From Candidatus Kapaibacterium sp. (GTDB lineage: Bacteria > Bacteroidota > Ignavibacteria > Kapaibacteriales > UBA2268): 64,000 nt of DNA. The notes beneath the pieces were generated by a model that did no database searches, was not told the origin of the DNA, and saw only the letters and a list, made by a program, of their open reading frames with translations. The position numbers and the translations under genes are program-made. The stretch covers positions 2,496,001 to 2,560,000 of the forward strand of contig OY762428.1 of assembly GCA_963665665.1 (NCBI GenBank), written 5' to 3'. This document shows positions 1 through 64,000 of this stretch, piece after piece. The stretch's first letter is position 1. The number at the start of each line of letters is the position of its first letter.

Positions 1-1
1 C

Positions 2-232
2 GCAGCAGCTGAAGAAGAACAGACTGAATTTGACGTTGAACTTACAGAATTCGGCGGCCAGAAGCTTCAGGTTATTAAAGCTGTTCGCGAAATTACAGGC
101 GTTGGCCTTAAAGAAGCGAAAGACATGGTAGAAGGCGCTCCTAATGTAGTTAAAGAACAGGTTTCTAAAGAAGAAGCAGAAGAAATTAAGAAGAAACTTG
201 AAGAAGCAGGCGCTAAAGTTACTCTTAAGTAA
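2..232 (+). CDS. rplL: 50S ribosomal protein L7/L12, 3' part (5' end outside window)
   Basis: Read by hand: [47 protein letters not shown]...[10 protein letters not shown]; lies directly upstream of rpoB. Confidence 0.97.
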
Positions 233-254
233 TCCAATAGATTATGATGAATCC

Positions 255-281
255 GGGAAAGTGGCTTAAAGCCGCTTTCCC
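255..281 (+). terminator. Hairpin after rplL (attenuator/terminator-like)
   Basis: GGGAAAGTGGC-ttaaa-GCCGCTTTCCC followed by a weak T-rich tail. Confidence 0.5.
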
Positions 282-370
282 AATTGTTCTTTATTTACGG
301 GGCTTTTAGTTCAGATATATTTTGTACAGGACAGCTTCTTTGAAACTTGACCAGATAAAAATATTTAACG

Positions 371-421
371 GGGTTTTCTGAGTTTTTCATTTGGGATTAA
401 TTCAGGAAGTCCTTTTTTTTT
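371..421 (+). terminator. G-U-rich hairpin plus T9 run in the rpoB leader
   Basis: 371-384 can pair with 399-412 (several G-U pairs); T run at 413-421. Confidence 0.4.
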
Positions 422-452
422 CGTTTCGAAAAACCATATCAGGAGGTGTTCA

Positions 453-4295: not shown

Positions 4296-4361
4296 GCGTC
4301 CCGGTATAGTGATTTTGATGATTGAGAATAAATTTTAACATAGATCGAGGAGTTTTATCTT

Positions 4362-7300: not shown

Positions 7301-8642
7301 TTCCGACAGGATATTGACAAAATATGATGTTACCTACGGAGCAGTCCTGAAAGTTAAAGAAGGCGAGGAAATTAAGAAGGGTACTATTATATACGAATGG
7401 GATCCGTACAACTCTACAATTATTACCGAGGTTTCCGGACGTATCAGGTATAAAGACTTGTTGCCAAATATTACATACCGCGAGGTAAATGATGAAACAA
7501 CAGGCCACCAGACAAAAGAAGTTATTGATTCTAAAGATAAAACAAAATCACCTGCTATCGAAGTTGTAGATGACAATGACGAAGTATTGAAAACATACAA
7601 CGTACCTTCAAGGGCTCAGCTTCGTGTGGATGACGGAGATATGATAGGCATGGGTTCCTCTTTGGTTAAAATCCCACGTGACCTTGGCCGTACAAGGGAT
7701 ATTACCGGTGGTTTGCCGAGGGTTACAGAGCTGTTTGAAGCCAGGGCGCCACAAAATCCGGCTGTTGTATCCGATATTGACGGTATTGTTACATTCGGAA
7801 AACCGAAACGAGGCCAGAGAGTGATTGTTGTCACCAGTTTCGATGAAAAAACTGTCCTTGAATACAGTGTTCCGGTTGGTAAATATATCCTTGTTCTTGA
7901 ATCAGATCTTGTACGTGCAGGCGACAGGCTGACTGAAGGCTCGATTAACCCGCATGATATTCTGAGAATAAAAGGCGCAAATGCAGTTCAGGAATATCTT
8001 GTGAACGAGATTCAGGAAGTTTATCGTATGCAGGGTGTGAAGATAAATGATAAACATATCGAAGTTATTGTAAGGCAGATGCTCCAGAAAATTAAGATCA
8101 TCGAATCAGGTGATTCAATATTCCTGGAAAACGATAACGTAGACAGAATCAAGTTTATTGATGAAAATCAGAAACTGAAAAATATGGTTGTGATTACGGA
8201 CAAAGGCGATTCTAAATTCCGTCCGAACCAGCTGCTTCCAAAACGCCAGGTAAGGGAAGTTAATAACGACCTGAAACGCAAAGATAAAGAAATTGCTGCG
8301 TTCAGGCCGGCCGAACCTGCTATTGCCGAACCAATTCTGCTTGGAATCACACAGGCATCATTAACTACTGAGAGCTGGCTCTCGGCTGCTTCCTTCCAGG
8401 AAACAACCAGGGTTCTTTCCGATGCTTCCGTTGCTGCAAAGATTGACGGTCTGATCGGACTAAAAGAGAATATTATTCTTGGCCAGCTTATTCCTGCAGG
8501 TACAGGCCTGCGGCATTATCAGACAATGAATGTCCAAAGTGAGATAGGTAACATTTTTGGAAAGGTGGCAGAAACTCAATCCGAACCTGCTGAAGAAAAA
8601 CAGGAAGATGCAGGTAAAGAAAAAGAGTCAGTTTCAATATAG
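4362..8642 (+). CDS. rpoC: DNA-directed RNA polymerase subunit beta'
   Basis: 1426 aa; NADFDGDQM catalytic motif, N-terminal Zn finger, [12 protein letters not shown]. Confidence 0.99.
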
Positions 8643-8657
8643 AATTAAATATAATTT

Positions 8658-8686
8658 AAAGCCGCTCTGACGGGCGGCTTTTTTTT
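8658..8686 (+). terminator. Rho-independent terminator after rpoC
   Basis: AAAGCCGCTC-tgac-GGGCGGCTTT plus T tract. Confidence 0.85.
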
Positions 8687-8778
8687 GCTCGGGCAATGAT
8701 CGAAATGATAAGGGAGATGACTGAGAAGTCACAAATTGAAATCACACAAATTTTTATTAATTTTTTATCGAGTTTCAA

Positions 8779-10869
8779 ATGGAGCAGATAAAGCAGATTA
8801 GAAACATTGGTATCGCTGCACACATTGATTCAGGAAAAACGACACTTAGCGAAAGAATATTATTTTACACAGGTAAAATACACAGGATTACAGAAGTAAG
8901 GAGTAAAGACGGGGCTGGCCCGACAATGGATTCGATGGACCTTGAAAGAGAAAAAGGTATCACTATCCAGTCGGCGGCCACTTATTGTACATGGGGGGAT
9001 ACCAATATCAATTTGATTGATACTCCCGGTCATATTGATTTTACAGTAGAAGTTGAAAGAGCATTAAGAGTTCTGGATGGCGCGGTTCTTGTTCTTTGCG
9101 GCGTTGCCGGTGTTCAGAGCCAGTCTCTGACTGTTGACAGGCAGATGAAGAGATACAATGTTCCGAGAATTGCCTTTATAAATAAGGTTGACAGGTCCGG
9201 TGCCAACCCGGATAAAGTTGTTTTCCAGTTGGAAGATAAATTGAAACACAGGCCTGTTTTACTTACAATGCCCATAGGCCTGGAGGATCAGTTCCAGGGT
9301 GTTGTTGACCTGCTGAAAATGAAAGCTGTTTATTACAAGGGCGAACAGGGTGAAAAAGTGGAGTATGAAGATATCCCCGCGCACCTGCAGGCCGAGGCTG
9401 AAAAAAGAAGAAAACAGATGATAGAAATTATAGCCGACTATGATGATGTAGTGGCTGAGAAATTCCTGGAAGATGTGGAGCCGGAATATGATGAATTGAT
9501 AGATGCAATCAGGCGTCATACAATCAATCTTCACCTTACACCCGTTCTGGTGGGAACAGCCAAGCAAAATAAAGGAATTCAGACACTTCTTGATGCCGTT
9601 GTCAGTTTCCTTCCTTCACCACTTGATATTGACAATCACGCTCTTGACCTTGACGAGAATGAAGAAAAAGTTGATTTGGAATCTGATCCAAACAAAAAAC
9701 TTGTTGCCAATGCCTTCAAACTTGAGGACGGAAAATACGGACAGCTTACATATATGAGAATTTACCAGGGATCAGTTAAAAAAGGTGACTTTATCGTTAA
9801 CATGAGCAATAAGAAAAAAATAAAAGTTCCAAGGCTTATCAGAATGCATGCAAGCGATATGCATGAAATCGAAGAAGCCGGAGCAGGTGATATTGTTGCT
9901 ATGTTCGGTGTGGATTGTTCATCAGGTGATACTTTTACAGACGGAAGTGTTAATTATTCAATGACTTCCATGTTTGTACCCACCCCTGTTATTGAGCTTA
10001 CAGTGGCCCCGAAGGAAAAATCCTCTCAGGCAAACTTCTCGAAAGCGCTTAACCGCTTCATGAAAGAAGACCCAACCTTCCAGGTAAAAAGAGATGAAGA
10101 AACAGGCGATACTATTATAAGCGGTATGGGTGAACTTCACCTGGATATTTATATTGAAAGGATAAAAAGGGAATATAATTGCGAGATAGTAGTGGGAAGG
10201 CCTAAAGTGGCATACCGCGAAGCAATTTCCAGAAAAGCCGAATTCAATTATACACATAAAAAACAGACCGGCGGTGCCGGACAGTTTGCCCGTGTTGCAG
10301 GGTTTATCGAACCAATCGAAGCTGTTGCCGGTGAAGATTATATGTTTGATAACAAAATTGTGGGCGGCGTTATCCCGAGAGAATACATTCCATCCTGCGA
10401 TAAGGGTTTCAAGGAGCAGCTGAAGGATGGTATTATAATCGAGCAGCCGGTTGTTGGCGTTAAAGTAACAATCAACGACGGGCAGTACCATGCCGTGGAT
10501 TCGTCTGAAATGGCCTTTAAAACAGCTGCAAAATTTGCCATGCGCGAAGCAATTTCCAAAGCCGGGCCGATAATTCTTGAACCTATAATGAAGCTGGAAA
10601 CTGCTGCACCTGAAGAATTCCAGGGTATAGTTATCGGACAGCTTAACCAGCGCAGGGGTATAATTGTTAATACCACTGTGGAAATGGGCTATGTTACGGT
10701 TGAAGCTGAAGTGCCATTGAAAGAGATGTTCGGATATTCTACCGACCTGAGAAGTTCAACACAAGGCAAGGGTGAATTCTCTATGGAGTTCCTCAAATAT
10801 TCACAGGTGCCCAAGGCAGTTCAGGAAGAATTGATAGAAGATTACAGGAAAAATAAAGAAGAGAAGTAA
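8779..10869 (+). CDS. fusA: Elongation factor G, spirochaete/mitochondrial EF-G1 type
   Basis: 696 aa; [50 protein letters not shown]; intact domain IV loops KQTGGAGQF and YHAVDSS; GKGEFSMEF. Confidence 0.95.
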
Positions 10870-11934: not shown

Positions 11935-13983
11935 ATGCCAAAAGAAATTGCCATATCAAAGATCAGGAACATCGGGATAGCCGCTCATATCGATGCAGGT
12001 AAGACTACGACAACCGAGAGAATCCTTTTCTACAGCGGAAAACTTCACAAAATAGGTGAAGTGGACGACGGAACAGCATTCATGGACTACATGGATCAGG
12101 AAAAAGAAAGAGGTATTACAATCGTATCGGCAGCAACTACCTGCGAATGGCGAGACCATCAGGTGAATATAATCGATACACCCGGACACGTTGACTTCAC
12201 TGCTGAAGTTCAAAGGTCGCTCAGGGTGCTCGACGGAGCCATTGCGATATTTTGCGGAGTAGGGGGTGTTGAACCACAATCAGAAGCTGTCTGGCACCAG
12301 GCAGATATGTATAAGGTTCCGAGAATTGCCTTTATTAATAAAATGGACAGGATCGGAGCTGACTTCTACAGGGTGCTGGATATGATGAGGGAAAGGTTGA
12401 AAGCCAACCCGATACCGGTAGCGATACCAATCGGCGCGACTGAAACCTTTAAAGGTACAATCGACCTTGTCAAAATGAAAGCATTATACTTCGATGTGGA
12501 GAAACAAGGCATTGAGTATAAGGAAGAAGAAATACCCGATGAATACAGAGATGTAGCCGAGGAATACAGGGCAAAAATGATTGAAGCGGTAGCTGAGACC
12601 GATGATGAACTTCTTGATAAATTTTTCGCTGGCGAAGAATTTAACGAAGAAGAGATCAAAACAGGAATAAGAACAGCTGTGATAGAGTTGAAATTTGTTC
12701 CCGTTCTTGTAGGATCTTCGCTAAAAAACGTAGGGGTGCAGCCACTTATGGATGCAATAGTTGATTATCTCCCCTCGCCGAAAGAAGTTAAATATATGCC
12801 CGGGTATGACGTAAATGATCTCGAGAAACAGCTAACCCGCGAGCCAAGGAATAAAGAAAAATTCTCGGCTCTGGCTTTCAAAGCCATAACGGATCAGTTT
12901 GTAGGACGCATAACTTTTATCAGGATTTACTCCGGGAAACTGGAGCTTGGAAAACCGGTTTTCAACCCGGTTGAAAATAAGAAAGAAAAAGTTCTTAAAA
13001 TTCTGAAAATGCATGCAAACAAACGTGAAGAAATAACATCAGCGGGCGCTGGCGAGATTGTGGCGATTTCAGGACTGCGGTTTACAAAAACCGGTGACAC
13101 ACTTTGCGATATTGATGCTCCCATTATTTATGAGAAGATCAATTTCTCGGACCCGGTAATAAACATGGCAGTTGAAGTAAAAACACTGGCAGATCAGGAC
13201 AGGCTGATTGAAGCTCTCGGAAAACTGGCCGAAGAAGATCCGACCTTCAAGTACAATATAGATAAAGAAAGTGGCCAGACTATTATCAGCGGTGTAGGTG
13301 AACTACACTTAGAAGTACTTGTTGAACGCCTTAAAAGGGAGTTCAAAATACCTACCAGAGCGGGTAAACCCCAGGTAGCCTACAGAGAATCAATCAGCAA
13401 TAAAATTAAATGCCAGGGTGAGTTTGACAAAACCACCAGCGGCAAACATCAGTTCGGCAGAATCACATTAGAGATTTCGCCTGCTGAAACGGGTAGCGGG
13501 ATTAGCATTGAAAATGAAATTCCCGATTCCGTGCTTGCCACCGAGTTCGTCGAAGCAGCTAAGAAAGGCGTCATGGACGGCCTGCTTGTCGGCCCTCAGG
13601 GATATCCTATGATAGATGTTCACGTTAAACTTCTAAAAGCAGATTTTAACGATGAATTCTCTACCGAACTGGGATACCAGGTTGCAGCCACAATAGCAGT
13701 AAAGGATGCTTCGAGATCAGCCGCTCCGGTTTTATTAGAACCGATCGTTGACCTTGAAATTGTCAGCCCCGAAGAATATACCGGTGATATTATCGCCGAA
13801 CTTAATGCAAAAAGGGGCAGGATTGACGGGATAGAACAAAGGGGTGCGCTGCAGGTGATAAAAGGAAAATCACCACTTTCAGAGATGTTCGGTTATGTAA
13901 CAAGATTGCGGTCCGTAAGCCAGGGAAGAGCTTCATACACGATGGTCTTCTCACATTACGAACCTGCGATGAACAAGAGATAA
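11935..13983 (+). CDS. fusA: Elongation factor G paralog in the str operon, divergent (EF-G2-like)
   Basis: 682 aa; G motifs [18 protein letters not shown] and NKMD intact; domain IV loops degenerate; between rpsG and tuf. Confidence 0.9.
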
Positions 13984-14059
13984 ATTGAAAATTTAAAACA
14001 ATATATACATTGTAATTATCAAACTATTTTTTTAATTAGCAAAATTAGGAGTTTATCCA

Positions 14060-15271
14060 ATGGCTAAGGAAAAATTTGATCGTACCAAACCCCACGTGAA
14101 TGTGGGAACAATCGGTCACGTTGACCACGGTAAGACTACTTTGACAGCAGCTATCACAATGGCTCTCGCAAAGAGAACTGCGGGTGCAGAGATTCGTTCA
14201 TTCGACTCAATCGATAACGCGCCTGAAGAAAAAGCACGTGGTATAACAATTGCTACAGCTCACGTGGAATACGAAACAGACACGCGTCACTATGCACACG
14301 TTGACTGCCCGGGCCACGCTGACTACATTAAAAACATGATCACTGGTGCAGCCCAGATGGACGGTGCAATACTTGTTTGTGCTGCTACAGACGGCCCTAT
14401 GCCCCAGACTCGTGAACACATCCTTCTCGCCCGCCAGGTTGGCGTGCCGAGCCTTGTTGTTTTCATGAACAAAGTTGATATTGCTGATCCGGAACTTCTT
14501 GAACTTATAGATATGGAACTTCGTGAGCTTCTTTCTTCTTACGAATTCCCGGGTGATGATATTCCGATCATTATGGGTTCAGCTCTTCAGGCACTTGAAG
14601 CCGGTTCAACAGATGGTGTTGGCCCTGATGACGAACGTCTGAAATGTATCTATGATCTTATGGACGAAGTTGACAGGTATGTACCGACTCCGATTCGCGA
14701 TACAGAAAAACCATTCCTGATGCCGGTTGAGGACGTATTCTCAATCACAGGCCGCGGAACAGTTGCTACAGGTCGTGTAGAGCGCGGTATTATCAAAGTT
14801 ACTGAAGAAGTTGAAATCGTTGGTTTCGGCCTTCAGAAGAAAACAACTTGTACAGGTGTTGAAATGTTCCGTAAACTTCTTGACGAAGGCCAGGCAGGCG
14901 ACAACGTTGGTCTCCTTCTTCGCGGTATCGACAAGAAAGAAATCGAACGCGGTATGGTTATTGCCAAACCGGGATCAATTACACCTCACCACAAATTCCA
15001 CGCACAGGTTTATGTTCTGAAAAAAGAAGAAGGCGGACGCCATACACCGTTCTTTAGCGGATATCGTCCTCAGTTCTACTTCCGTACAACAGACGTTACC
15101 GGCAACCTTAACCTTCCCGAAGGTGTAGAAATGGTTATGCCTGGTGACAACCTTGACGAACTTTACATTGAACTGATTACACCAGTTGCTATGGAAGAAG
15201 GTCTTCGTTTCGCTATCCGCGAAGGTGGCCGTACAGTGGGCGCCGGTGTTGTAACAAAAATTGACGAATAA
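14060..15271 (+). CDS. tuf: Elongation factor Tu
   Basis: [27 protein letters not shown]. Confidence 0.99.
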
Positions 15272-15285
15272 TATATTCTTTTATA

Positions 15286-15309
15286 ATTCGCGGGCAATAG
15301 CCCGCGAAT
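15286..15309 (+). other. Stem-loop between tuf and rpsJ, no U tract
   Basis: ATTCGCGGGC-aata-GCCCGCGAAT perfect 10-bp stem; possible processing or stability element. Confidence 0.5.
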
Positions 15310-15346
15310 ATAAATTATCCGAAATAAAAGCTTAAGGAACTTAAAA

Positions 15347-15655
15347 GTGGCTACACAAAGGATAAGAATAAAGTTAAAATCGTACGACCATAAACTGATT
15401 GACAAGTCATCAGAGCGAATAGTCCGTACAGTTAAGCAAACGGGCGCTGTAGTATCAGGGCCAATACCCCTGCCTACAAGACGCACAGTATATACTGTAA
15501 ACCGTTCGCCTCACGTTGACAAGAAATCCCGTGAGCAATTTGAAGCCAGGGTACATAAAAGGCTAATAGATATCTTCAGTTCAACACAGAAGACCATAGA
15601 TGCCCTAATGAGACTGGAATTACCGGCGGGCGTAGATGTTGAAGTAAAAGTCTAA
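15347..15655 (+). CDS. rpsJ: 30S ribosomal protein S10
   Basis: [29 protein letters not shown]. Confidence 0.99.
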
Positions 15656-15671
15656 ATAAGGAGTTAATTAA

Positions 15672-16292
15672 ATGACAGGCGCGATTCTTGGTAAAAAAAT
15701 CGGCATGACAAGTTTCTTCGATAATGAAGGAGTTAAGATTCCCTGCACGGTAGTTGAAGCCGGGCCATGTCCGGTGGTTCAGGTTAAATCCAATGAAACT
15801 GACGGATATACATCAGTCCAGATCGGTTTCGGAGAAATCAGGGAAAAGAATGTCAACAAGCCTTTAAAGGGTCACTTCGCCAAAGCGAGCGTTAATCCCA
15901 CTCGTTATTTGAAAGAATTCCGGGCTCCAGGTAAAGATTATAAGGTCGGCGAAGAATTAACAGTTGAACAATTTGAGATCGGGGACAAAGTAAGAGTTTC
16001 CGGTAAATCAAAAGGAAAAGGTTTCCAGGGTGTTATGAAACGCCACAATTTTGGCGGTGTTGGTATGGCCACTCACGGCCAGTCCGACAGGCAGCGCCAC
16101 CCCGGTTCAATTGGTCAGTCTTCATATCCTTCAAGGGTTATGAAAGGGCTCAAAATGGCCGGGCGAATGGGCGGAAAACGAGTAACAGTCAGGAATATTG
16201 AGGTTTTGGAAATTATTCCGGAACAGAATTTGCTGATTCTTAAAGGGTGCGTACCCGGAGCTTCAAATTCACTAATTGAAATAGTAAAGTAA
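15672..16292 (+). CDS. rplC: 50S ribosomal protein L3
   Basis: GKKIGMT, KGKGFQGVMKRH, MAGRMGG. Confidence 0.99.
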   Translation: MTGAILGKKIGMTSFFDNEGVKIPCTVVEAGPCPVVQVKSNETDGYTSVQIGFGEIREKNVNKPLKGHFAKASVNPTRYLKEFRAPGKDYKVGEELTVEQFEIGDKVRVSGKSKGKGFQGVMKRHNFGGVGMATHGQSDRQRHPGSIGQSSYPSRVMKGLKMAGRMGGKRVTVRNIEVLEIIPEQNLLILKGCVPGASNSLIEIVK

Positions 16293-16304
16293 TAAGGCGA
16301 AAAA

Positions 16305-16931
16305 ATGCAGATAGATGTATATACTAAGGACGGACAGCAAAACGGGCAGACAGAGCTGCGCGATGATATTTTTGCTATAGAGCCTAACGAGCATGCCATG
16401 CATCTGGCAGTTGTTTCTTACCTTGCAGCCAAAAGGCAGGGCACGCATAAAACAAAAACGCGTGACGAGGTAAGAGGCGGCGGCAAGAAGCCATGGAGGC
16501 AAAAAGGCAGGGGTACTGCCCGTGCCGGTTCTACACGTTCTCCTCTTTGGGTAGGCGGCGGTACCATTCATGGTCCAAAACCACACAAATATCATGTAGC
16601 ATTACCCAAGAAGCTTAAAAGGCTTGCCAGAAAATCAGCATTTTCCCTCAGATGCTCTGAAAATAATCTGATGATCGTTGAAGATTTCAATCTGGATGCG
16701 ATAAAAACAAAAAGCATGGCCGAAATTTTCGAAAATTTGAAAATCGGCGGGGAAAAAGTACTGGTACTCTTGCCTGGGGAAAACAACAATATCTGGCTTT
16801 CGGCAAGAAATATCCCGAAAGTAAGCGTTCATCCTGCAGACAGGATTTCAACTTATGAAATTCTGAATCATAAGAAAATTCTGCTTTTCAAGAGTGCTAT
16901 AGATACTATAGAGAAAACATTTGGTAACTAA
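16305..16931 (+). CDS. rplD: 50S ribosomal protein L4
   Basis: KPWRQKGRGTARAGS, SPLWVGGG. Confidence 0.99.
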   Translation: MQIDVYTKDGQQNGQTELRDDIFAIEPNEHAMHLAVVSYLAAKRQGTHKTKTRDEVRGGGKKPWRQKGRGTARAGSTRSPLWVGGGTIHGPKPHKYHVALPKKLKRLARKSAFSLRCSENNLMIVEDFNLDAIKTKSMAEIFENLKIGGEKVLVLLPGENNNIWLSARNIPKVSVHPADRISTYEILNHKKILLFKSAIDTIEKTFGN

Positions 16932-35431: not shown

Positions 35432-35638
35432 ATGAGCGAGATAATTTTTTTAATCGAAGAAGCTGCTGAAGGTGGATATTCTGCAAAAGCTATGGGTTAC
35501 AGCATTTTTACCGATGCCGGAACAATTGAAGAAATTAAGGAAAATATTAAAGATGCAATCAAATGTCATTTTGATGATGGGGAATTACCAAAATTGGTTA
35601 GAATGCATTTTGTTCATGATGAAGTATTTGCATTATAA
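35432..35638 (+). CDS. Short HicB-like antitoxin
   Basis: 68 aa, EEAAEGGYSAKAMGYSIFT..TIEEIKENIKDAI pattern; TAATG coupling to a HicA-like gene. Confidence 0.75.
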   Translation: MSEIIFLIEEAAEGGYSAKAMGYSIFTDAGTIEEIKENIKDAIKCHFDDGELPKLVRMHFVHDEVFAL

Positions 35639-35880
35639 TGAAATTATCCAGAGATATTGATGGGTTGATACTGGTAAAAAAACTAGATAAGTTGGGATAC
35701 AATATTACACGCCAGACTGGAAGTCATATCAGATTGACTACGTCAAGAAATTGAGAACATCATATTACTATCCCGTCTCATATTCCGATAAAGGTTGGAA
35801 CTCTATCTTCAATTTTGAATGATATAGCTAAACATTTTTCAATAACAAAAGAAGACTTGATCAATAAATTAAAAATATAA
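35638..35880 (+). pseudogene. HicA-family toxin with in-frame TGA at codon 39
   Basis: MKLSRDIDG..LGYNITRQTGSHIRLTTSRN*EHHITIPSH.PIKVGTLSSIL...; stop at 35752-35754. Confidence 0.85.
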
Positions 35881-35977
35881 TATTCCCAATTGCTATAAAT
35901 TACTTAAATTATTGCAACTATTTTCAAATCAGATTGTTTAACATATACCGTCGGAATTGAATATTAAGGAGTATGTT

Positions 35978-37654
35978 ATGAAATCAGGTAGGATTTTATT
36001 TGTGGCAAACATTATCATTATGATCGCTGCCCAAATCAGTCTATATTCCGCAGAAAAGCAATGGGTGAAGATTGATATATATTCGGAAGAATCCGGGCAT
36101 ACTGTTTATTCCAGGATATATAATGAAAAGGGGCTTATATCACAATTTGATACCGAACGCTACATGGGGGAAAGTGATTATGATATTGAAAGATATACTT
36201 ATGAATATGATTCGGGGGATTCATTATCTGAACGTATCCGGATGAGGCTACAGGGCGGAAATATTGTTCCCTATTACAAAAGCATTTACGAGTATTACGA
36301 AAACGGCCCGAGAAAAAAATATGAAAGCTGGTACTGGACTGGCAGCGAATATATTATAATGAACAGCGCCGAATGGAAATATGACGAAGACAATTATCTG
36401 ACTGAAAGCCTGAGTTCCTCGTTTGATTCGGATACTGTTGACCAGAAGGTCAGGATAATCTATGAATATGACGATGACCATCATATAATTATGGAGAAAA
36501 AAGAAGAGTGGCGTTATGATGAATGGGTTAATAAATATATATATTTTTACCAATATCTGAATGGATACAAAATTCAGGAATATAAGGAAAAATGGAGTAG
36601 CCCGGATGTTTCAACGATCGAAATAAAAGAATGGGAATATGAAGATACATTATTAATAAAACAAACATATAGAAAGATAAATAACTCTTTGGAGGAATAT
36701 ACATACAATTATGATGAAAGAAACAGAATTGTTGAAGAAAATTATAGATTTTCAGAACATTATACTGGAGAATTGAAAAACGTTGGTAAGATGAAATACG
36801 ATTATCCGGAAGAGAATAAATGTATAGAAACCCAATTGAAATTTTCAGACGGTAACTGGATTGGATTGACCAAAAGACATACAATTAAAAATACTTACGG
36901 AAAAATTATTGAATATCTTATAGAGAGATATGAAACTGGTGTATGGATCCCGGATTATAAATATATTGTTACTTTTAATCAGATGCAGCTGGAGCTGACT
37001 GAATTTCATTTTATATATAATGACAATGGATGGCAACCGTTTAGGAACGTATTTTGGGAATACACATCAAACGGTAATCTAAAATCACGTAAAATTGAAA
37101 ATTATGATAATGAGGAATTGCTTAGTACCATTATATATGAATGGATTTATGAAAACAACCTGCCCGTTTTAATTGAGATGTTCAGCCAAAAGGAGAATGA
37201 TTTACCCGTTATTAAGCGTGTTATTATGAAATATGACGACGGTTTGCTGACCGAAGAAATACACCAGGAAAAAAATGGCGATATATGGGAGAATACACAA
37301 CTCTATTTTGAATTCCGGGAAAGATATCTTGATATATATCCAGGCTATAAACTTCAAATAGAATGGCAGGAAATTACATCTACTGATGAAGATGATGAAA
37401 AGGAAAATGTTCCATTTGTTATCTATCCCCAGCCAAGTAGCGGCATAATAAATCTGAATTATATTGCTCAGTCTCCCGGCGCTGTTGCAGTACGTGTAAT
37501 TGATATGAGTGGCAATGTTGTTTATACTCAATCTAAAGTCAACACAGCATCATTATATAGATTTGACCTTAGCGGCCTTGCCAACGGTGTTTACATTTTT
37601 GAAATTAACGACGGCGGAGTGATCCGAAGCAGGGAGATTGTGATAGCGAGGTAG
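35978..37654 (+). CDS. Secreted Tyr/Glu/Trp-rich repeat protein with T9SS type A C-terminal domain
   Basis: Signal peptide; repeated YxYxYD...E...W units; IYPQP...GVYIFEI CTD; AGGAG RBS before ATG 35978. Confidence 0.85.
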   Translation: MKSGRILFVANIIIMIAAQISLYSAEKQWVKIDIYSEESGHTVYSRIYNEKGLISQFDTERYMGESDYDIERYTYEYDSGDSLSERIRMRLQGGNIVPYYKSIYEYYENGPRKKYESWYWTGSEYIIMNSAEWKYDEDNYLTESLSSSFDSDTVDQKVRIIYEYDDDHHIIMEKKEEWRYDEWVNKYIYFYQYLNGYKIQEYKEKWSSPDVSTIEIKEWEYEDTLLIKQTYRKINNSLEEYTYNYDERNRIVEENYRFSEHYTGELKNVGKMKYDYPEENKCIETQLKFSDGNWIGLTKRHTIKNTYGKIIEYLIERYETGVWIPDYKYIVTFNQMQLELTEFHFIYNDNGWQPFRNVFWEYTSNGNLKSRKIENYDNEELLSTIIYEWIYENNLPVLIEMFSQKENDLPVIKRVIMKYDDGLLTEEIHQEKNGDIWENTQLYFEFRERYLDIYPGYKLQIEWQEITSTDEDDEKENVPFVIYPQPSSGIINLNYIAQSPGAVAVRVIDMSGNVVYTQSKVNTASLYRFDLSGLANGVYIFEINDGGVIRSREIVIAR

Positions 37655-58186: not shown

Positions 58187-60220
58187 ATGAAAAAGTTACA
58201 TTCATTGCTATCAACACTATTATTAATCACTTTTATGTCTGTCCCGGTATTTTCGCAATCAGTAAAGCTCGGTATTCCGCTAACAAGACGAAACCTTATC
58301 GAAGCAGATAACTTCATAAAGAAATATGCTCCGGCAGACAGCGCATTCCGCCTTCTGAACCAAATGGCCAATATCAATAATTATATCGGCAGGCCGGATA
58401 TCGGCAGAACACTTTTAAAAATATATATGGGCTATTTCCCCAACAGGCAGGAATATATCCTAAGGCAGATAGACATCAAAACCAACCAGATGCTGCTTAC
58501 GCAAAACCCCGAGTTAATGAAGGACTCCTATGATACATTTATAAATGAGGAGGCTCCGTCACGAGAGGCCTTCGTGGCAGTTCAGAAAATTGCCGAACCT
58601 TACGTTAAAAGAAGGTCATGGGATTCTGCCATAAAAATTTATCAATTGTATAAACCCCTGTTTTTTAATATGTCCGACTATTTTAACGAAACCATATCTA
58701 TTCTCGAAGCTAAGGAAGAAGGCCTTGAGGTTCACAACCTGGGTTCTATTATCAACTCCTACACATCGGAATGGGATCCGAACCCGACTCCCGACGGCCG
58801 CTTTCTGTACTTTTCATGCAGGGGCAGACGCGGCGGGCTGGGTAAGAGCGACGTTTGGTACTCGGAAATGAAGAACGGCAAATGGAAAGCTCCGGTAAAT
58901 GCCGGAAAAAGTATTAACGGTAAGAATGAAGAGACAATAGACAACGTAACTACGGACGGAAACGGGCTTTTCCTTTCAGGTACTTTTGAAGGAACTCTCG
59001 GGAACTTTGATATATTTTACGCGGAAAGGGTAAAAAACGGCTGGGGCAAACTGAAACATTTCGATCCGCCAATAAATAGCGAACATACTGACGAAGCCGC
59101 AGGATTCAGTTCAGATGGCAAAGCGTTGATTTTTTCTTCCGACAGGCCGGGCGGAATAGGAGACTTCCACCCGCACAATTCTATGTATGAAGGGAACGAC
59201 CAGGGCAACATGGATATTTATGTTTCAATTATGTCTGATACCGGCTGGACCGAGCCGATAAATATCGGACCGACGATAAATACTCCCTGGGCTGAACGTT
59301 CACCTTATCTTCACCCGGACGGAAAAACCCTATATTTCAGTTCAAACGGTCATCCTTCGGTTGGCGGCATGGACGTATTTAAAACTACCCGGCTCAGGGA
59401 AGATTCCTGGACTGAATGGAGCAAGCCCGTAAACCTTGGCAAGGAAATAAATACAGCCGACGATGATTGGGGATACACTATTGCTGCCCAGGGGGATAGT
59501 GCATTCTTTGCCGGAATGGGCCGCGAGGGAGGCATGGGCCAATGGGATATTTATACCGTGAAACTGCCCGAAGATGCAAGGCCTGATCCGGTTGTAATAA
59601 TAAAGGGATGGGTTACTGATACCGAAGGCAATCCTCTGTCGGTGGATATAAAATGGGAAGACCTTGCCAGCGGAAGAAATATAGGCCGGCTGAAAAGTAA
59701 TCCTGACGACGGAACTTATGTTATTGCCCTGCCGCTTGGCAAAAATGTAGGATATTACGCGGAGAAAGAAGGCTATTACCCCGCTGCAAAAAATATTGAC
59801 CTTCGCCAGCTTGTGTCGGAGCCTAATGTAAATGAGAATATCGTTATGGTATCTATTAAGGAAATGAAGGAAAACGGAACTAAAGTCAGGATCAACAATA
59901 TTTTCTTTGATTTTGATAAGGCAGAGATTAAATCCGAATCTTTTCCGGAGCTAAGGCGTCTTGCCTCGTTTATAAAGAAAAATCCCGGTTTTAAAATAGT
60001 TGTTGAAGGCCATACAGATAACGTCGGTGCTGAAAAATATAATAAGGAACTATCCCTGAAAAGGGCGGAGAATATTGTGAAGTATCTTGTTGACAGGGGC
60101 TGCCTTGCATCAAGGTTTGAAGCCAAGGGCCTGGGAACATCCAAACCTGTCGGAGATAATGTAACGGATTTCGGACGCTCACAGAATCGCCGCGTGGAGA
60201 TTTGGTTCCTGCCTGAATAG
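58187..60220 (+). CDS. OmpA-family protein with PD40 repeats (PorE-like architecture)
   Basis: PTPDGRFLYF, SSDGKALIFSS, HPDGKTLYFSS; NIFFDFDK, EGHTD, LSLKRA, NRRVE. Confidence 0.9.
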   Translation: MKKLHSLLSTLLLITFMSVPVFSQSVKLGIPLTRRNLIEADNFIKKYAPADSAFRLLNQMANINNYIGRPDIGRTLLKIYMGYFPNRQEYILRQIDIKTNQMLLTQNPELMKDSYDTFINEEAPSREAFVAVQKIAEPYVKRRSWDSAIKIYQLYKPLFFNMSDYFNETISILEAKEEGLEVHNLGSIINSYTSEWDPNPTPDGRFLYFSCRGRRGGLGKSDVWYSEMKNGKWKAPVNAGKSINGKNEETIDNVTTDGNGLFLSGTFEGTLGNFDIFYAERVKNGWGKLKHFDPPINSEHTDEAAGFSSDGKALIFSSDRPGGIGDFHPHNSMYEGNDQGNMDIYVSIMSDTGWTEPINIGPTINTPWAERSPYLHPDGKTLYFSSNGHPSVGGMDVFKTTRLREDSWTEWSKPVNLGKEINTADDDWGYTIAAQGDSAFFAGMGREGGMGQWDIYTVKLPEDARPDPVVIIKGWVTDTEGNPLSVDIKWEDLASGRNIGRLKSNPDDGTYVIALPLGKNVGYYAEKEGYYPAAKNIDLRQLVSEPNVNENIVMVSIKEMKENGTKVRINNIFFDFDKAEIKSESFPELRRLASFIKKNPGFKIVVEGHTDNVGAEKYNKELSLKRAENIVKYLVDRGCLASRFEAKGLGTSKPVGDNVTDFGRSQNRRVEIWFLPE

Positions 60221-60244
60221 GTGGAAATAGGATGAGAAAAAATG

Positions 60245-60387
60245 TCCACCTCTGGCCCCGACACGTCGGGACAGGCAGGGGGTGGCGGCGTAGCTGGCTG
60301 GGGTGGATTCTTTTTCTGGCAACCACAAGGGTTGCCCCTACATTTTGATTAATTTCCCCCACCGTCCCCGATTTGTCGGGGATTGAC
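60245..60387. repeat. Cluster of REP-like palindromes including a GTAG-headed REP
   Basis: CCCGACACGTCGGG; minus-strand GTAGGGGCAACCCTTGTGGTTGCC at 60318-60341; TCCCCGATTTGTCGGGGA. Confidence 0.7.
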
Positions 60388-60567
60388 AAAACGTAAATAA
60401 TTAGAATTAAGAGACATCGCTATCTAAGCCTGGAAATTGTATTCCCATTTGAAATACTATTATATTTGCTTTTTAAATACGCGTATATTATTTTAGCTGA
60501 ATTAGTGAAACGGCGGATTTTGCTGCCGATCAAGTCTGTATCTATTGAAAAGAATGCGGAGAAAAAT

Positions 60568-60798
60568 ATGAACCTGCAATATATCTCAGATAGCAATGGC
60601 CGGACAACAGGGGTTTTTATTCCCATAAATGACTGGAACGAGTTGAAAAAAAAATTCAAAGATATTGACCGGCTGGATATTGATATACCGGACTGGCACA
60701 AAGGGCTGGTTAGGGAACGTATGGAAGAATATAATGCCAATCCCGAGACTGAAATTGATCTGGATAAAGCAATGAACAATATCGAAAAAGAACTATAA
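60568..60798 (+). CDS. Addiction-module antitoxin
   Basis: 76 aa MNLQYISD..G..TGVFIPI.DW...IPDWHK..VRER; TAATG coupling to a RelE/ParE-like gene. Confidence 0.78.
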   Translation: MNLQYISDSNGRTTGVFIPINDWNELKKKFKDIDRLDIDIPDWHKGLVRERMEEYNANPETEIDLDKAMNNIEKEL

Positions 60799-61079
60799 TG
60801 TACAGATCAATAATATTGTCTTCTGCTGTGAATGATATCAAAGAAGCAGCGTTGTGGTATAATAAGAAAAAAGAAGGGCTTGGTAAAAAATTTACTGCTG
60901 TTATTCGTGAAAAAATACATTTCATCAGGGAAAATCCAGGAGCATGCCGTATAAGATATGACAATATCAGAACTGCCGTATTGAAGGTATATCCTTTTAT
61001 GATTCATTATTATATTGATGAAATTAATAAAAGAGTTGTGATAATAGCTGTGCTTCATACGTCTCGCTTAACGCCATGA
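60798..61079 (+). CDS. RelE/ParE-family toxin
   Basis: A..DI.EA..WY...GLG.KF, NP, R......YPF.IHY, IIAVLHTSR. Confidence 0.85.
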   Translation: MYRSIILSSAVNDIKEAALWYNKKKEGLGKKFTAVIREKIHFIRENPGACRIRYDNIRTAVLKVYPFMIHYYIDEINKRVVIIAVLHTSRLTP

Positions 61080-61113
61080 TAATCGACGCAAACAAGAGTT
61101 CTAATCCATATTG

Positions 61114-61136
61114 CTTTCGGATAAGATATCCGAAAG
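61114..61136. repeat. Perfect 10-bp inverted repeat after the toxin gene
   Basis: CTTTCGGATA-AGA-TATCCGAAAG. Confidence 0.65.
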
Positions 61137-61151
61137 AGCATCGAGAATACC

Positions 61152-61180
61152 CCTTCCCAAGCGGGGCTTGGGAAGGAGAA
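61152..61180. repeat. REP-like palindrome, copy 1
   Basis: CCTTCCCAAGC-GGG-GCTTGGGAAGG-AGAA; near-identical to 63320-63349. Confidence 0.85.
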
Positions 61181-61260
61181 AAAAAAACAATTTATCCTTC
61201 TCAATATTCACAAAAATACCTTATATTTGAATATGTATTTTCAAAATCAGAGGACAAGTT

Positions 61261-62562
61261 ATGAAAAAACTACTACTGCTGTTCATTCTATTTTCTGCGA
61301 CAAATATCTTTGCGCACAATGGCAAATGGACTCAAATGCATCCTGAAACTTCGCCACCACCAAGAGCTGATTATGGCATGGCATATATAGGTGATGATAA
61401 GGTTATGATATTTGGAGGTTATTCTTACTATCCTGATACACCTACTGAGACTGTCAATGATACATGGATTTATGATCTATCGGAAAATACCTGGACAGAA
61501 ATTCATACTGATATTAAACCTCAAAAAAGAAAGCTCTTTCAAATGTCAAAATTGGAAGACGGGAAGGTTTTAGTGTTTGGGGGGGACTATGAGTCTCATT
61601 TTTATGCTGACGATACATGGATATTTGATTTTGAAACACTTTCATGGAATGAGGTTAGTTGTTCATATCATCCGGGAATAAGAGACAGGGGAGTAATGGC
61701 TTATATTGGTGACGGGAAGGCTTTGCTCTATAGCGGTTGGCCCGGTCCTGTTGATTATTATAATGATGCATGGATTTTTGATTGTCAGTCAATGACATGG
61801 GACAGCGTTAATAGCACTTCGCCGCCTCCTACTAATTGCGGCATAGGTAGAGAAAGAGCACAAATGTGTAGATACAATGATAGCAGTGTATTAATGTACG
61901 GTGGATATGATGGATGCAAAAGTCAAAAAGACAATTGGTTTTTCGATAGAGAGTTTAATAAATGGATTGGTGATTTGCCGCAGCCAAATAATTATCGCCG
62001 AGACTCTGGCGATATGGGATATCTAACATCCGGAAAAATATTATTATTCGGTGGTTGCTCTATTGTTGATTCATTATATCCTTCCGTTACGGCATATAGC
62101 AATGATACGTGGATATTTGATATTTCAGATACATCATGGAATGAGTTATTTCTTGACGAGCATCCCAGTGGCCGAAGTTTTCATGAAATGGCAAATATTG
62201 GCGAAGGCAAAGTCCTATTATTTAGTGGCATTGTTGATGGAAACCTTGAAGAATATCCTACTACATGGCTTTTTGAATATGAGCCGAATGATGTTGAAGA
62301 AAATGAAAATAGTAAAACAGCAGGAATAATTCAAATTGCTGATAGGGTGAGTATTTCTATTCCATCTGATAATTCAATACACACCCCGGAATTAAAGATA
62401 GTTGATATTTGCGGCAGGGATATATTTGTTGATTATTCATCAGCAAATTCCGCAGTATCAACCAGAATTGAGTTTAGTACACTCGGCCTTGCGGCAGGAG
62501 TGTATTTTGCTACGGTGAAAGCAGGTGCGGAGATTTATTGGTTTAAGTTTTTCGCGGAGTAG
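61261..62562 (+). CDS. Secreted Kelch-repeat beta-propeller protein with T9SS-like CTD
   Basis: Six repeats of R...M..IG..KV.IFGG...DTWIFD....W; GLAAGVYFATV C-terminus; signal peptide. Confidence 0.88.
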   Translation: MKKLLLLFILFSATNIFAHNGKWTQMHPETSPPPRADYGMAYIGDDKVMIFGGYSYYPDTPTETVNDTWIYDLSENTWTEIHTDIKPQKRKLFQMSKLEDGKVLVFGGDYESHFYADDTWIFDFETLSWNEVSCSYHPGIRDRGVMAYIGDGKALLYSGWPGPVDYYNDAWIFDCQSMTWDSVNSTSPPPTNCGIGRERAQMCRYNDSSVLMYGGYDGCKSQKDNWFFDREFNKWIGDLPQPNNYRRDSGDMGYLTSGKILLFGGCSIVDSLYPSVTAYSNDTWIFDISDTSWNELFLDEHPSGRSFHEMANIGEGKVLLFSGIVDGNLEEYPTTWLFEYEPNDVEENENSKTAGIIQIADRVSISIPSDNSIHTPELKIVDICGRDIFVDYSSANSAVSTRIEFSTLGLAAGVYFATVKAGAEIYWFKFFAE

Positions 62563-62569
62563 GATTATC

Positions 62570-62602
62570 AGATGTTCAACACCTTGAAGGTGTTGAACAT
62601 CT
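62570..62602. repeat. Perfect 16-bp inverted repeat (REP-like)
   Basis: AGATGTTCAACACCTT-G-AAGGTGTTGAACATCT, no U tract. Confidence 0.85.
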
Positions 62603-62777
62603 AAGCCGGGAGGATCAAATAAAAAACAATTTGAATATCCTCATATTTCAGAATGATAGTTTTGTTCTTTGATCAGAAATAATACTCAAATATGTTGTTT
62701 ATTTGAAAAATTTAATAATAATGAAGTATAATCAAAATTTATTATCTTCGTTTTAATAACAAAAAGAAAAGGCAAAT

Positions 62778-62993
62778 ATGAAAAAAGAAATTGAATTCGA
62801 TTACATGATCTGGCGCGAGGGAAAATACTATGTATCAAGATGCCTTAATATTGAACTATCATCATTTGGCAATACCAGGGAAGAAGCGCTGAAAAATCTG
62901 AAAGAAGCCCTGGAACTTTATCTTGAAGATAATATATCAGAATTAATCAAGATAAGTGATTTTTCTTATGGCCGGGAAACTGTTAATGCCTAA
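62778..62993 (+). CDS. Short HicB-family antitoxin
   Basis: EGKYYVSRC..ELSSFG.TREEAL.NL.EALELY. Confidence 0.88.
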   Translation: MKKEIEFDYMIWREGKYYVSRCLNIELSSFGNTREEALKNLKEALELYLEDNISELIKISDFSYGRETVNA

Positions 62994-63213
62994 ATTATAT
63001 TCATCTGTTGAAATACAGAAAGTTCTTTTTATACTGGGATTTTCTTTTATAAGCCAAAAAGGCTCACATGCAAAATTCCGGGATGATACCGGAAATATTG
63101 TGATATTGCCGATGAATAAGAAAGAAATTCCTGAGGGCACGCTGCACAGTATTTTAAAGCAATCAAATATCAGCAAAACAAAATTCAAATCACTTCTAAA
63201 ATCTAAAAAATAA
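62986..63213 (+). CDS. HicA-family toxin
   Basis: MPKLYSS..I.K.L..LGF..ISQKGSH.KF...VILP..KEIP.GTL.SILKQS. Confidence 0.88.
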   Translation: MPKLYSSVEIQKVLFILGFSFISQKGSHAKFRDDTGNIVILPMNKKEIPEGTLHSILKQSNISKTKFKSLLKSKK

Positions 63214-63234
63214 TCATGATTTCCCCTCATTCCA

Positions 63235-63347
63235 CTTCTTACCAAGTTGTACTTGGTAATGTAGCTTTTCTGAGAAGCTGTGCTTCATAATTTCAAAGTA
63301 CAACTTTTTAGGAAATTTACCTTCTCAAGCAGGGGCTTGGGAAGGAG
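63235..63347. mobile_element. MITE/REPIN-like composite palindromic element
   Basis: Terminal hairpins TTACCAAGT-tgt-ACTTGGTAA and CCTTCTCAAGC-aggg-GCTTGGGAAGG; internal GAAGC-tgt-GCTTC and AAAGT-aca-ACTTT; imperfect terminal inverted repeats. Confidence 0.6.
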
Positions 63348-63424
63348 AAAAAATTATATTATTTTATTCTTTCAATCAGAATAATTATCTTACGTCAAAA
63401 ATTAGAAAAGGAGAATCAGGAACA

Positions 63425-63628
63425 ATGGAATCATTACTAATAACTCCCGGAAATAAAAAAGAAATGGCAATTATTCTGAATTTTATTGAGAAAATGAAAG
63501 TTCGTTCAAGACTTCTTTCTCAGGATGATTTGGAAGATATTGGAATGGCATATCTTATGAATCAGGCTGATAAAGACGATAAGGTTGCGGAAGAGGAAAT
63601 TCTCCGGGAACTAAATGATGGATGTTGA
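63425..63628 (+). CDS. Putative antitoxin
   Basis: 67 aa with acidic C-terminus (EDIGMAYLM..AD....V.EEEI); overlaps the relE-like gene. Confidence 0.7.
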   Translation: MESLLITPGNKKEMAIILNFIEKMKVRSRLLSQDDLEDIGMAYLMNQADKDDKVAEEEILRELNDGC

Positions 63629-63884
63629 ATTCCTCTCTGCATTTCATCGGGATATTAAAAAGATAAAATCCCGGGAAATTAAAAGAAGGCTGATTGAAAC
63701 AATTGCTATGATTAAATCGACAAAACATCCCCATGATATACCAAATTTGAAGAAAATGGCTATACTGCCAAACGCTTTCAGAATCCGAATAGGCGATTAT
63801 CGACTTGGTATTTTTATTGAATCAGAAAAAGTGATATTTGCAAGAATTGCTCACAGAAAAGATATTTATAAAATTTTCCCTTAA
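63615..63884 (+). CDS. RelE/StbE-family toxin
   Basis: F.RDIKK, LKKM, FRIRIGDYRLG, HRKDIY..FP. Confidence 0.9.
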   Translation: MMDVEFLSAFHRDIKKIKSREIKRRLIETIAMIKSTKHPHDIPNLKKMAILPNAFRIRIGDYRLGIFIESEKVIFARIAHRKDIYKIFP

Positions 63885-63915
63885 ATATTATTCCGCTAAT
63901 ATTATGGATATAAAC

Positions 63916-64000
63916 ATGAAAACAATATTACTGCTGTTCATTCTATTTTCTGCCACTAATATCTTTGCCCACAATGGCAAATGGACACGAATGCATCCTG
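63916..64000 (+). CDS. Second Kelch-repeat secreted protein, 5' end (truncated by window)
   Basis: MKTILLLFILFSATNIFAHNGKWTRMHP; 77/85 nt identical to the start of 61261-62562. Confidence 0.85.
   Translation, partial: MKTILLLFILFSATNIFAHNGKWTRMHP

Follow-up and report, generated by a model that had tools for sequence, protein, structure and literature searches.

What kind of locus is formed when toxin-antitoxin (TA) operons, intergenic hairpins and genes for secreted Kelch proteins follow one another along a bacterial chromosome? This question is raised by the end of a 64,000-nt stretch of DNA (the window in this text) from Candidatus Kapaibacterium sp., an uncultured relative of the Kapaibacterium/Ignavibacteria group. 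The window is taken from a single 5.46-Mb contig of 38.6% guanine plus cytosine (GC), at positions 2496001-2560000, and we extended the locus past the window end as segment L001 (genome 2552001-2570000). An initial annotation of the window had described the region as a repeating array. Nearly all of the features that it listed, namely three TA pairs, two Kelch genes (K1 and K2), hairpins in the spacers and a shared 18-mer, were present (Table 1). On the other hand, extension past position 64000 revealed only two Kelch units, and the series stopped after K2, to be followed by two genes of the Rpn (recombination-promoting nuclease) family and menA. The reading that we prefer, with a probability of about three in four, is a lineage-specific, TA-rich accessory island of ~8 kb that carries a pair of recombining Kelch genes. 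The island would extend from window position 60221 to ~68300 (genome 2556221-2564299), between the OmpA/PD40 gene and menA. Genes were called with a simple rough caller (4170 genes), which missed toxin 3.

Mosaic structure of the Kelch genes

K1 matched the Kelch profile PF24681 with an E-value of 7e-44, and K2 also contained Kelch domains. A profile built from 362 C-terminal sorting domains (CTDs) of the genome itself recognized the ends of both proteins, with E-values of 6.9e-10 for K1 and 1.9e-11 for K2, and the N-terminus (MKKLLLLFILFSATNIFA/HNG) appeared by eye to be like a signal peptide. Judged by these features, K1 and K2 are probably cargo of the type IX secretion system (T9SS), and the proteins are presumably exposed at the cell surface. 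The initial annotation had put the first 85 nt of K2 at about 91% identity to K1, and we counted 77 of 85 identical positions (90.6%). The likeness runs from the ATG for ~95 nt at ~90% identity and returns over the last ~310 nt at ~83% together with 12 nt beyond the stop codon, while the ~900-nt middle can barely be aligned. The synonymous divergence (dS) between the genes was 0.31 for codons 1-30 and 0.44 for codons 331-433 as compared to 2.7 (saturated) for codons 31-330, and the nonsynonymous divergence (dN) was low at the two ends (0.06 and 0.135). Since selection on the protein cannot lower dS by this much, the ends share a more recent ancestry than the body.

We then compared the locus with assembled contigs of runs X6 and X7, both from one sample (S4), and with a marine-metagenome run, X1. 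The flanks and TA modules of the strain in S4 were 97-99% identical to the window. The X6/X7 contigs differed from L001 at 91 positions over 1-5422, 8 over 6554-7276 (hicBA), 19 over 7263-7987 (repeat element, TA pair 3 and K2 start), 10 over 9212-9609 (flank past K2) and 47 over 11936-16336. The order of the modules was kept as flank, TA pair 1, Kelch gene, hicBA, repeat element, TA pair 3, Kelch gene and flank. The initial annotation had proposed to look for changes of order at the palindromes; in the one close strain that could be examined (~98% identical) none was found and all junctions were preserved. Inside the Kelch genes the picture was different. The first 72 nt of K2 led into K1-like sequence in the X6/X7 contigs (a joint of L001 position 7987 to 5333), and a second joint connected 6478 to 9161 with 24 other letters between. 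These two joints indicate that the second Kelch gene of the strain has a K1-like and not a K2-like body. The K2 body itself had little or no contig cover in X6, X7 and X1, and we used only contigs that join across.

Two proteins from a relative, P0002 and P0003, were found independently in the protein database. Their contigs are both recorded as 103,248 nt and were taken as one contig. At its start P0003 reads through the 3' end of the toxin 3 gene, just as the longest open reading frame (ORF) of K2 does, which places P0003 after TA pair 3 with the junction preserved. Over residues 31-80 the two proteins were 96-98% identical to K1, while over residues 81-330 they were 51-53% identical to K1, 39% identical to K2 and 78% identical to each other. 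In an X1 contig, part of the K1 body was 97.5% identical, and pieces of hicBA, TA pair 3 and the OmpA gene were 91-95% identical. We read these patterns as recombination because the breaks in identity are sharp, because copies within a genome resemble each other more than their positional counterparts and because the similarity of alleles does not track that of their flanks. On this sequence evidence the Kelch genes are mosaics, with bodies exchanged between copies and between strains. Of the reading in the initial annotation, the variable secreted proteins were borne out, and recombination between paralogs or alleles has shaped them, as judged by the dS contrast, the strain contigs and the proteins of relatives.

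In the mechanism that we propose, the signal-peptide end and the linker-plus-sorting-domain end of the Kelch genes would stay similar, and the propeller body would be replaced by recombination between the two copies and between strains. Such a mosaic would be expected for a surface protein under diversifying selection, the selection being our own supposition. The locus offers a small but clear case of a pair of genes for secreted beta-propellers with an exchanged body and kept export signals, in which the differences are sharp between strains that are otherwise ~98% identical. If the Kelch proteins are surface-exposed, the locus would mark a site on which phages, grazers or competitors exert diversifying pressure.

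Three joints in X3 (L001 positions 5139 to 9496, 5178 to 10712 and 7260 to 10789) were considered as rearrangements and rejected; they contain foreign letters and fall at dispersed repeats, and we read them as other genomic copies of those repeats. A scan of metagenome contigs with an alignment of K1 and K2 returned one 1.6-kb contig at 41% identity that gave no context, and the same scan of genome contigs found nothing. In another genus of the same family (G010, L013:4856-6858), a Kelch gene with a T9SS-like tail was 31% identical to K1. It lies tail-to-tail with a putative nucleotidyltransferase/HEPN TA pair (identified by eye), a TA type different from those at the present locus.

Toxin-antitoxin pairs and a probable accessory island

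The three TA pairs were of different kinds, as the initial annotation had stated, and comprise a RelB-like antitoxin with ParE, HicB with HicA, and an antitoxin without a known family with a RelE-type toxin. Toxin 1 scored 37.4 bits with PF05016 (ParE_toxin; cut-off 23) and is one of eight ParE/RelE matches in the genome. The matches of antitoxin 1 to PF09720 (22.6 bits; cut-off 23.3) and PF18506 (19.8 bits; cut-off 27) were both sub-threshold, and its stop codon overlaps the ParE1 start by 1 nt (TAATG). HicA scored 52.6 bits with PF07927 (cut-off 27), and we placed its start at ~62986 from a relative in L015 and from the ATGCCTAA overlap. The HicB-like protein matched DUF7387 at 26.2 bits, below the cut-off of 27.9, and a solved HicB structure only weakly (E-value 0.022). 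A paralog of this protein is found upstream of another HicA gene at genome position 3800996, and the pairing with HicA is kept in two relatives. Toxin 3 scored 29.7 bits with PF05016 (cut-off 23). Antitoxin 3, which had no match in Pfam, NCBIfam or PDB, overlaps the toxin 3 gene by 14 nt, and it was assigned as an antitoxin because of this position and because the same pair is kept in two relatives (L011 and L012). The three pairs are presumed to be functional. Since only 31 nt separate the toxin 3 stop codon from the K2 start, K2 is likely to be cotranscribed with TA pair 3. The operon structure is likewise tentative; a promoter scan predicted 40 sites as compared to 29.6 +/- 4.2 in shuffled sequence, and a terminator scan 8 as compared to 5.6 +/- 2.3. 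We also rejected the possibility that a TA-plus-Kelch unit had been duplicated, as ParE1 and toxin 3 had no BLAST similarity and the DNA upstream of K1 was unrelated to that upstream of K2.

A census of five toxin families identified 26 loci in the genome (ParE/RelE 8, HicA 10, PIN 3, MazF 4 and HigB 1). Three of the 26 toxins are found within 3,050 nt at this locus, an arrangement that was improbable under random placement in a simulation (P = 0.0024), and the TA cluster is therefore real. The locus resembles the chromosomal type II TA clusters of accessory and defense islands (ParDE/RelBE, HicAB) in its overlapping two-gene operons, toxins above the Pfam cut-offs, low GC content, clustering beyond chance and differing contexts in related genera. 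It differs from them in that the antitoxin gene comes first in the hic pair, antitoxin 3 belongs to no described family, and two TA pairs are located between two paralogous genes for secreted proteins.

The accessory nature of the region was indicated by a comparison of flanks and base composition. We compared 80 loci that contain a gene related to OmpA/PD40, of which 74 pass an ortholog score filter, and none had TA, Kelch or Rpn genes within 10 kb; at one of them, L050, rfaE follows the OmpA/PD40 gene at a distance of ~2 kb. In 40 related genomes, none of the same genus, a DNA search matched only the conserved flanks, Rpn genes and short TA fragments. The named assemblies with the closest relatives of the OmpA/PD40 protein, at 50-56% identity, were of Candidatus Kapaibacterium and Ignavibacteria. 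In other genera of the family, TA pair 3 and hicBA have homologs in unrelated contexts. The GC content was 36.5% for the island and 33-35% for the TA pairs, and 44-47% for the flanking genes.

To the right of K2 are the two Rpn-family genes (L001:9670-11886, window 65670-67886) and an 89-codon ORF, after which menA and rfaE follow on the other strand. The Rpn genes scored 144.9 and 131.9 bits with TIGR01784 (cut-off 52.1). Rpn paralogs differ from one another by whole four-residue EGxE repeats, one copy having a long EGRE run, and three of the four most similar copies have the composite repeat element of the locus (Table 1) ~95-100 nt upstream. Further Rpn-family genes were present at genome 3891367-3893558 and 388902-389882, and tandem Rpn genes were 95% identical. 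According to one report, Rpn genes are toxin/antitoxin antiphage genes that differ in the number of four-residue repeats and are enriched in defense islands (PMC10400941). The island genes are like the RpnL/RpnS genes in TIGR01784 score, C-terminal repeat differences and tandem duplication, and they are located outside the interval of the initial annotation. PADLOC, run on the island proteins, identified no defense system and gave one weak match, a 'putative invertase' at the C-terminus of Rpn2. We propose that the island may have collected modules of a selfish or defense type, comprising three unrelated type II TA operons and two Rpn genes of a kind in which the antitoxin would be carried inside the toxin gene. 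The spacers are filled with several hairpin families common throughout the genome, similar to repetitive extragenic palindromes (REPs) or miniature inverted-repeat transposable elements (MITEs), and these are not cassette boundaries.

Hairpins and dispersed repeats in the spacers

The two palindromes that the initial annotation had placed upstream of K1 were both perfect hairpins, the second with an 11-bp stem at 61152-61176, and the 16-bp palindrome and the MITE-like composite element were also present. The 18-mer GCTTGGGAAGGAGAAAAA was indeed shared between positions 61166 and 63335; however, it is the end of a dispersed repeat and is not specific to junctions. A degenerate third junction at 62608-62632 could not be upheld, the similarity being one seen by eye in a spacer that has one BLAST match elsewhere in the genome. 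The 16-bp palindrome, located in the same spacer, has no T-run on its 3' side. The spacer between toxin 3 and K2 contained no repeat or hairpin.

We searched the genome for further copies of these elements. The core GGGCTTGGGAAGGAG had 24 exact copies and 50 with up to two mismatches, while the chance expectation for a 15-mer in this genome is ~0.01 copies by our own arithmetic. A catalogue of perfect hairpins with a stem of at least 9 bp had 975 members, 616 of them in intergenic DNA, which makes up 13% of the genome. It included 25 hairpins with the CCTTCCCAAGC core and 9 with the CTTTCGGATA core, and other families had 13 to 52 members. The CTTTCGGATA hairpin adjoins the CCTTCCCAAGC hairpin at three further loci. 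The composite element at 63220-63350 had 51 other BLAST matches at 72-95% identity on both strands; by the rough gene call nearly all copies are in spacers, and they had no orientation bias with respect to the neighboring genes, about half pointing toward the start of the neighbor by our reading of the match table. The spacer 3' of the OmpA/PD40 gene carried repeated 15-mers over 63 nt and had 29 BLAST matches at other loci, and it also contained a terminator-like hairpin (L001 4318-4336). Every hairpin of the locus belonged to a dispersed family except the 16-bp palindrome 3' of K1, which is essentially unique. An Rfam scan of the 18-kb locus gave two chance-level matches below the gathering score (SNORD44 and an R2 element), and the hairpin elements matched no described Rfam RNA family.

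We measured the frequency of such repeats as 15-mers present in at least six copies, in spacers of at least 40 nt; a 12-mer measure was dropped, as it scored 43% of the genome as repeat. Repeated 15-mers were found in 767 of 2708 spacers, that is, in 170 of the 526 spacers beside a T9SS gene (32%) and in 597 of 2182 elsewhere (27%). The excess beside T9SS genes was a small effect (odds ratio 1.27, P = 0.027). Toxin genes were no nearer to repeat-bearing spacers than other small genes (11/23 vs 320/652). Since the hairpins belong to dispersed families and occur at nearly equal rates beside and away from T9SS genes, they are a property of the intergenic DNA of this genome and not of these junctions, and the palindromes do not serve as the unit boundaries that the initial annotation took them for. 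The outcome is mostly a correction, in that hairpins at gene junctions are the rule in this genome and have no cassette meaning.

Like REPs and bacterial interspersed mosaic elements, MITEs, and the REP doublets (REPINs) that go with REP-associated tyrosine transposases (RAYTs), the elements exist as tens of short intergenic palindrome copies that are joined into composite mosaics. In contrast to REPIN-RAYT systems and MITEs, neither the CCTTCCCAAGC family nor the CTTTCGGATA family could be connected to a mobilizing enzyme, and the RAYT-like gene of the genome is flanked by its own hairpins, of a family different from those at the locus. This gene, the only RAYT-like one in the genome, encodes a 153-aa Y1 (IS200/RAYT-like) transposase (gene at 1821805; G000:C1:1821400-1822400). 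One and the same pair of REP hairpins, of the CGCCCCTACGGGGC and CCGCAGCTACGCTGC types, is present on either side of it, which looks like a classical REPIN-RAYT arrangement. At genome 2577162-2581594 (window coordinates 81162-85594), three 460-aa T9SS paralogs that are 81-95% identical each have a hairpin 8 nt past the stop codon, and this hairpin is confined to these three places.

Table 1. Features of the locus in window coordinates
Feature	Position	Strand	Description
OmpA/PD40 gene	58187-60220		Conserved gene left of the island
Spacer 3' of OmpA/PD40 gene	60221-60567		Dispersed hairpin repeats, CCCCGA..TCGGGG type and others
Antitoxin 1	60568-60798	+	76 aa, similar to RelB and Unstab_antitox
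ParE-family toxin 1	60798-61079	+	93 aa, PF05016
Hairpin CTTTCGGATA-AGA-TATCCGAAAG	61114-61136		Perfect 10-bp stem
Hairpin CCTTCCCAAGC-GGG-GCTTGGGAAGG with AGAAAAA tail	61152-61183		Contains the shared 18-mer
Kelch gene K1	61261-62562	+	433 aa, beta-propeller, probable T9SS CTD
16-bp perfect palindrome	62570-62602		Starts 8 nt 3' of the K1 stop codon
HicB-like antitoxin	62778-62993	+	71 aa
HicA toxin	62986-63213	+	75 aa from the ATG at 62986; longest ORF from 62956
Composite MITE/REP-like element	63220-63350	+	~125 nt, four hairpins, ending GGGCTTGGGAAGGAGAAAAA
Antitoxin 3	63425-63628	+	67 aa, no family match
RelE/ParE-superfamily toxin 3	63615-63884	+	89 aa, PF05016
Kelch gene K2, 5' end	63916-64000	+	434 aa; ends at genome 2561220 (window 65220)

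Alternative readings of the locus

To place the TA pairs among the T9SS genes, we iterated a CTD profile on the proteins of the genome and obtained 362 cargo genes among the 4170, covering 16% of the bases. A T9SS gene was found no more than 500 nt away from eight of the 26 toxins, of which three are those of this locus, and the TA-adjacent T9SS genes at the other sites were single and unrelated and occurred in either orientation. Neighboring T9SS paralogs, scored for paralogy with the last 90 residues (containing the CTD) removed, formed 93 pairs with partners no more than six genes apart. Many of these pairs were 76-100% identical, and K1/K2 was the only pair to enclose toxins of the five families. 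Tandem arrays of T9SS paralogs were found at genome 1367310-1388554, 637175-653356 and 3952312-3959300 and at ~27 other loci; they reach 15 genes and 100% identity, with no five-family toxin between members. Tandem T9SS paralogs clearly persist without TA pairs in this organism. At 35432-37654, where the initial annotation had seen a second case of a TA pair followed by T9SS cargo, the adjacency was present, with a HicB-like ORF and a HicA match at 35432-35823 and a 565-aa T9SS cargo gene 134 nt downstream. The TA pair itself, however, is probably degraded, because the HicA frame contains an in-frame TGA.

The initial annotation had proposed that TA pairs and T9SS cargo genes form units of an integrase-free cassette array, gained, lost and shuffled at the palindromes that bound them. 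TA pairs and Kelch genes do alternate twice, most spacers contain hairpins, and the end GCTTGGGAAGGAGAAAAA occurs upstream of K1 and TA pair 3 and, with one or two mismatches, upstream of both Rpn genes. We nevertheless regard this reading as very unlikely. The array has only two units, its hairpins are of different families dispersed through the genome regardless of gene type, the 31-nt junction of toxin 3 and K2 has none, and the similarity of K1 and K2 is bounded by the ATG and by a point 12 nt past the stop codon rather than by hairpins. The related strain kept the order, its differences being inside the Kelch genes rather than at the junctions. Ten tyrosine recombinases (PF00589) were found in the genome, the nearest at 1.54 Mb and 4.02 Mb as compared to 2.56 Mb for the locus, so the recombinase search suggested by the initial annotation returned no PF00589 match within 1 Mb, and the RAYT-like gene that it did return goes with a different hairpin family. 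An array that ends, a kept order and palindromes about as frequent elsewhere were the three findings that the initial annotation itself had named as contradicting the cassette reading, and all three were observed. Sedentary chromosomal integrons such as the Vibrio superintegron (PMC13108822) are alike in their interspersed TA operons and intergenic palindromes. Unlike integrons, the locus has no integrase nearby and no uniform attC-type site for each gene, consists of two units only, has palindromes that belong to genome-wide families, and had no cassette turnover in the one related strain. Just as unlikely is an active hotspot in which Rpn genes and hairpins assemble the island and drive the replacement of the Kelch genes. 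No Kelch breakpoint coincides with a hairpin, and most of the ~50 copies of the composite element are far from any Rpn gene, even though two Rpn genes close the island, Rpn2 and the two members of the second Rpn pair (3891367, 3892662) each have the element ~95-100 nt upstream, and a ParE, Rpn and T9SS series recurs at genome 2837132.

The Kelch ends could also have stayed similar with no recombination, if an old duplication was followed by strong purifying selection on the export signals; functional constraint does act on the signal peptide and on the T9SS sorting domain, and the low dN at both ends is consistent with this. We consider it improbable, because dS at the ends is several-fold lower as well. 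Moreover, the identity of K1 to the two proteins of the relative drops from 96-98% (residues 31-80) to 51-53% over the next 250 residues, the two copies of the relative are closer to each other (78%) than to their positional counterparts in this genome, and the marine-metagenome contig is more similar in the K1 body part (97.5%) than in its flanks (91-95%). The TA modules could further act as keepers of the Kelch pair, in that hicBA and TA pair 3 would be lost by a crossover between the similar ends of the two Kelch genes and cells without them would be poisoned, by which the two-gene repertoire would be preserved. The idea that TA loss punishes deletion comes from the integron system, where TA cassettes of chromosomal integrons kill cells if cassette excision is too frequent (PMC13108822). 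Two toxins are exactly between K1 and K2, the sole such case among the T9SS paralog pairs of the genome, the same TA modules occupy the same places in the related strain, and the Kelch genes do recombine. Yet 92 of the 93 neighboring T9SS paralog pairs, including pairs that are 76-100% identical and arrays of up to 15 genes, have no five-family toxin between them, K1 and K2 share only short tracts that have diverged (~95 nt at 90% identity and ~310 nt at 83%), so crossovers are expected to be rare, and TA pair 1, being outside the K1/K2 pair, would survive the deletion. The keeper role is improbable for this locus, and a TA-based keeping of both Kelch copies is unlikely as a general rule. Similarly improbable is an extended form in which the locus would be a two-gene device for Kelch diversity, its conserved ends anchoring body swaps between the two positions and with other strains and its TA operons guarding the repertoire outside any integron. 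The locus is in any case a simple natural test case for the protection of neighboring repeats from deletion by chromosomal TA modules.

Several observations weigh against the preferred reading of a TA-rich accessory island with a recombining Kelch pair. The CTDs scored below the curated cut-offs, at 19.4 bits with PF18962 (cut-off 27) and 18.4 bits with TIGR04183 (cut-off 23) for K1 and at 20.2 bits (cut-off 23) for K2. The strain comparison consists of fragmented contigs of one sample and two database proteins compared as protein sequence. Dispersed repeats are present in six of the seven spacers of the locus, as compared to a genome rate of 28%, which makes the island richer in repeats than the average. 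Finally, outside the locus 5 of 23 toxins were near a T9SS gene relative to a null of 9.7% (other small genes), which was not significant (P = 0.066). The genome-wide enrichment of TA pairs beside T9SS paralogs, which the initial annotation had proposed to test, therefore stands as a weak trend, close to chance expectation in this genome.

Two unrelated loci came to our attention in the same genome. At 2593124-2594330, a run of short spacers has a period of about 224 nt and two ORFs share their opening peptide, probably as part of a tandem repeat array. At 1891413-1891992, two adjacent 84-codon ORFs had equal scores as GIY-YIG proteins and may encode small single-strand nucleases of the Ssn kind.

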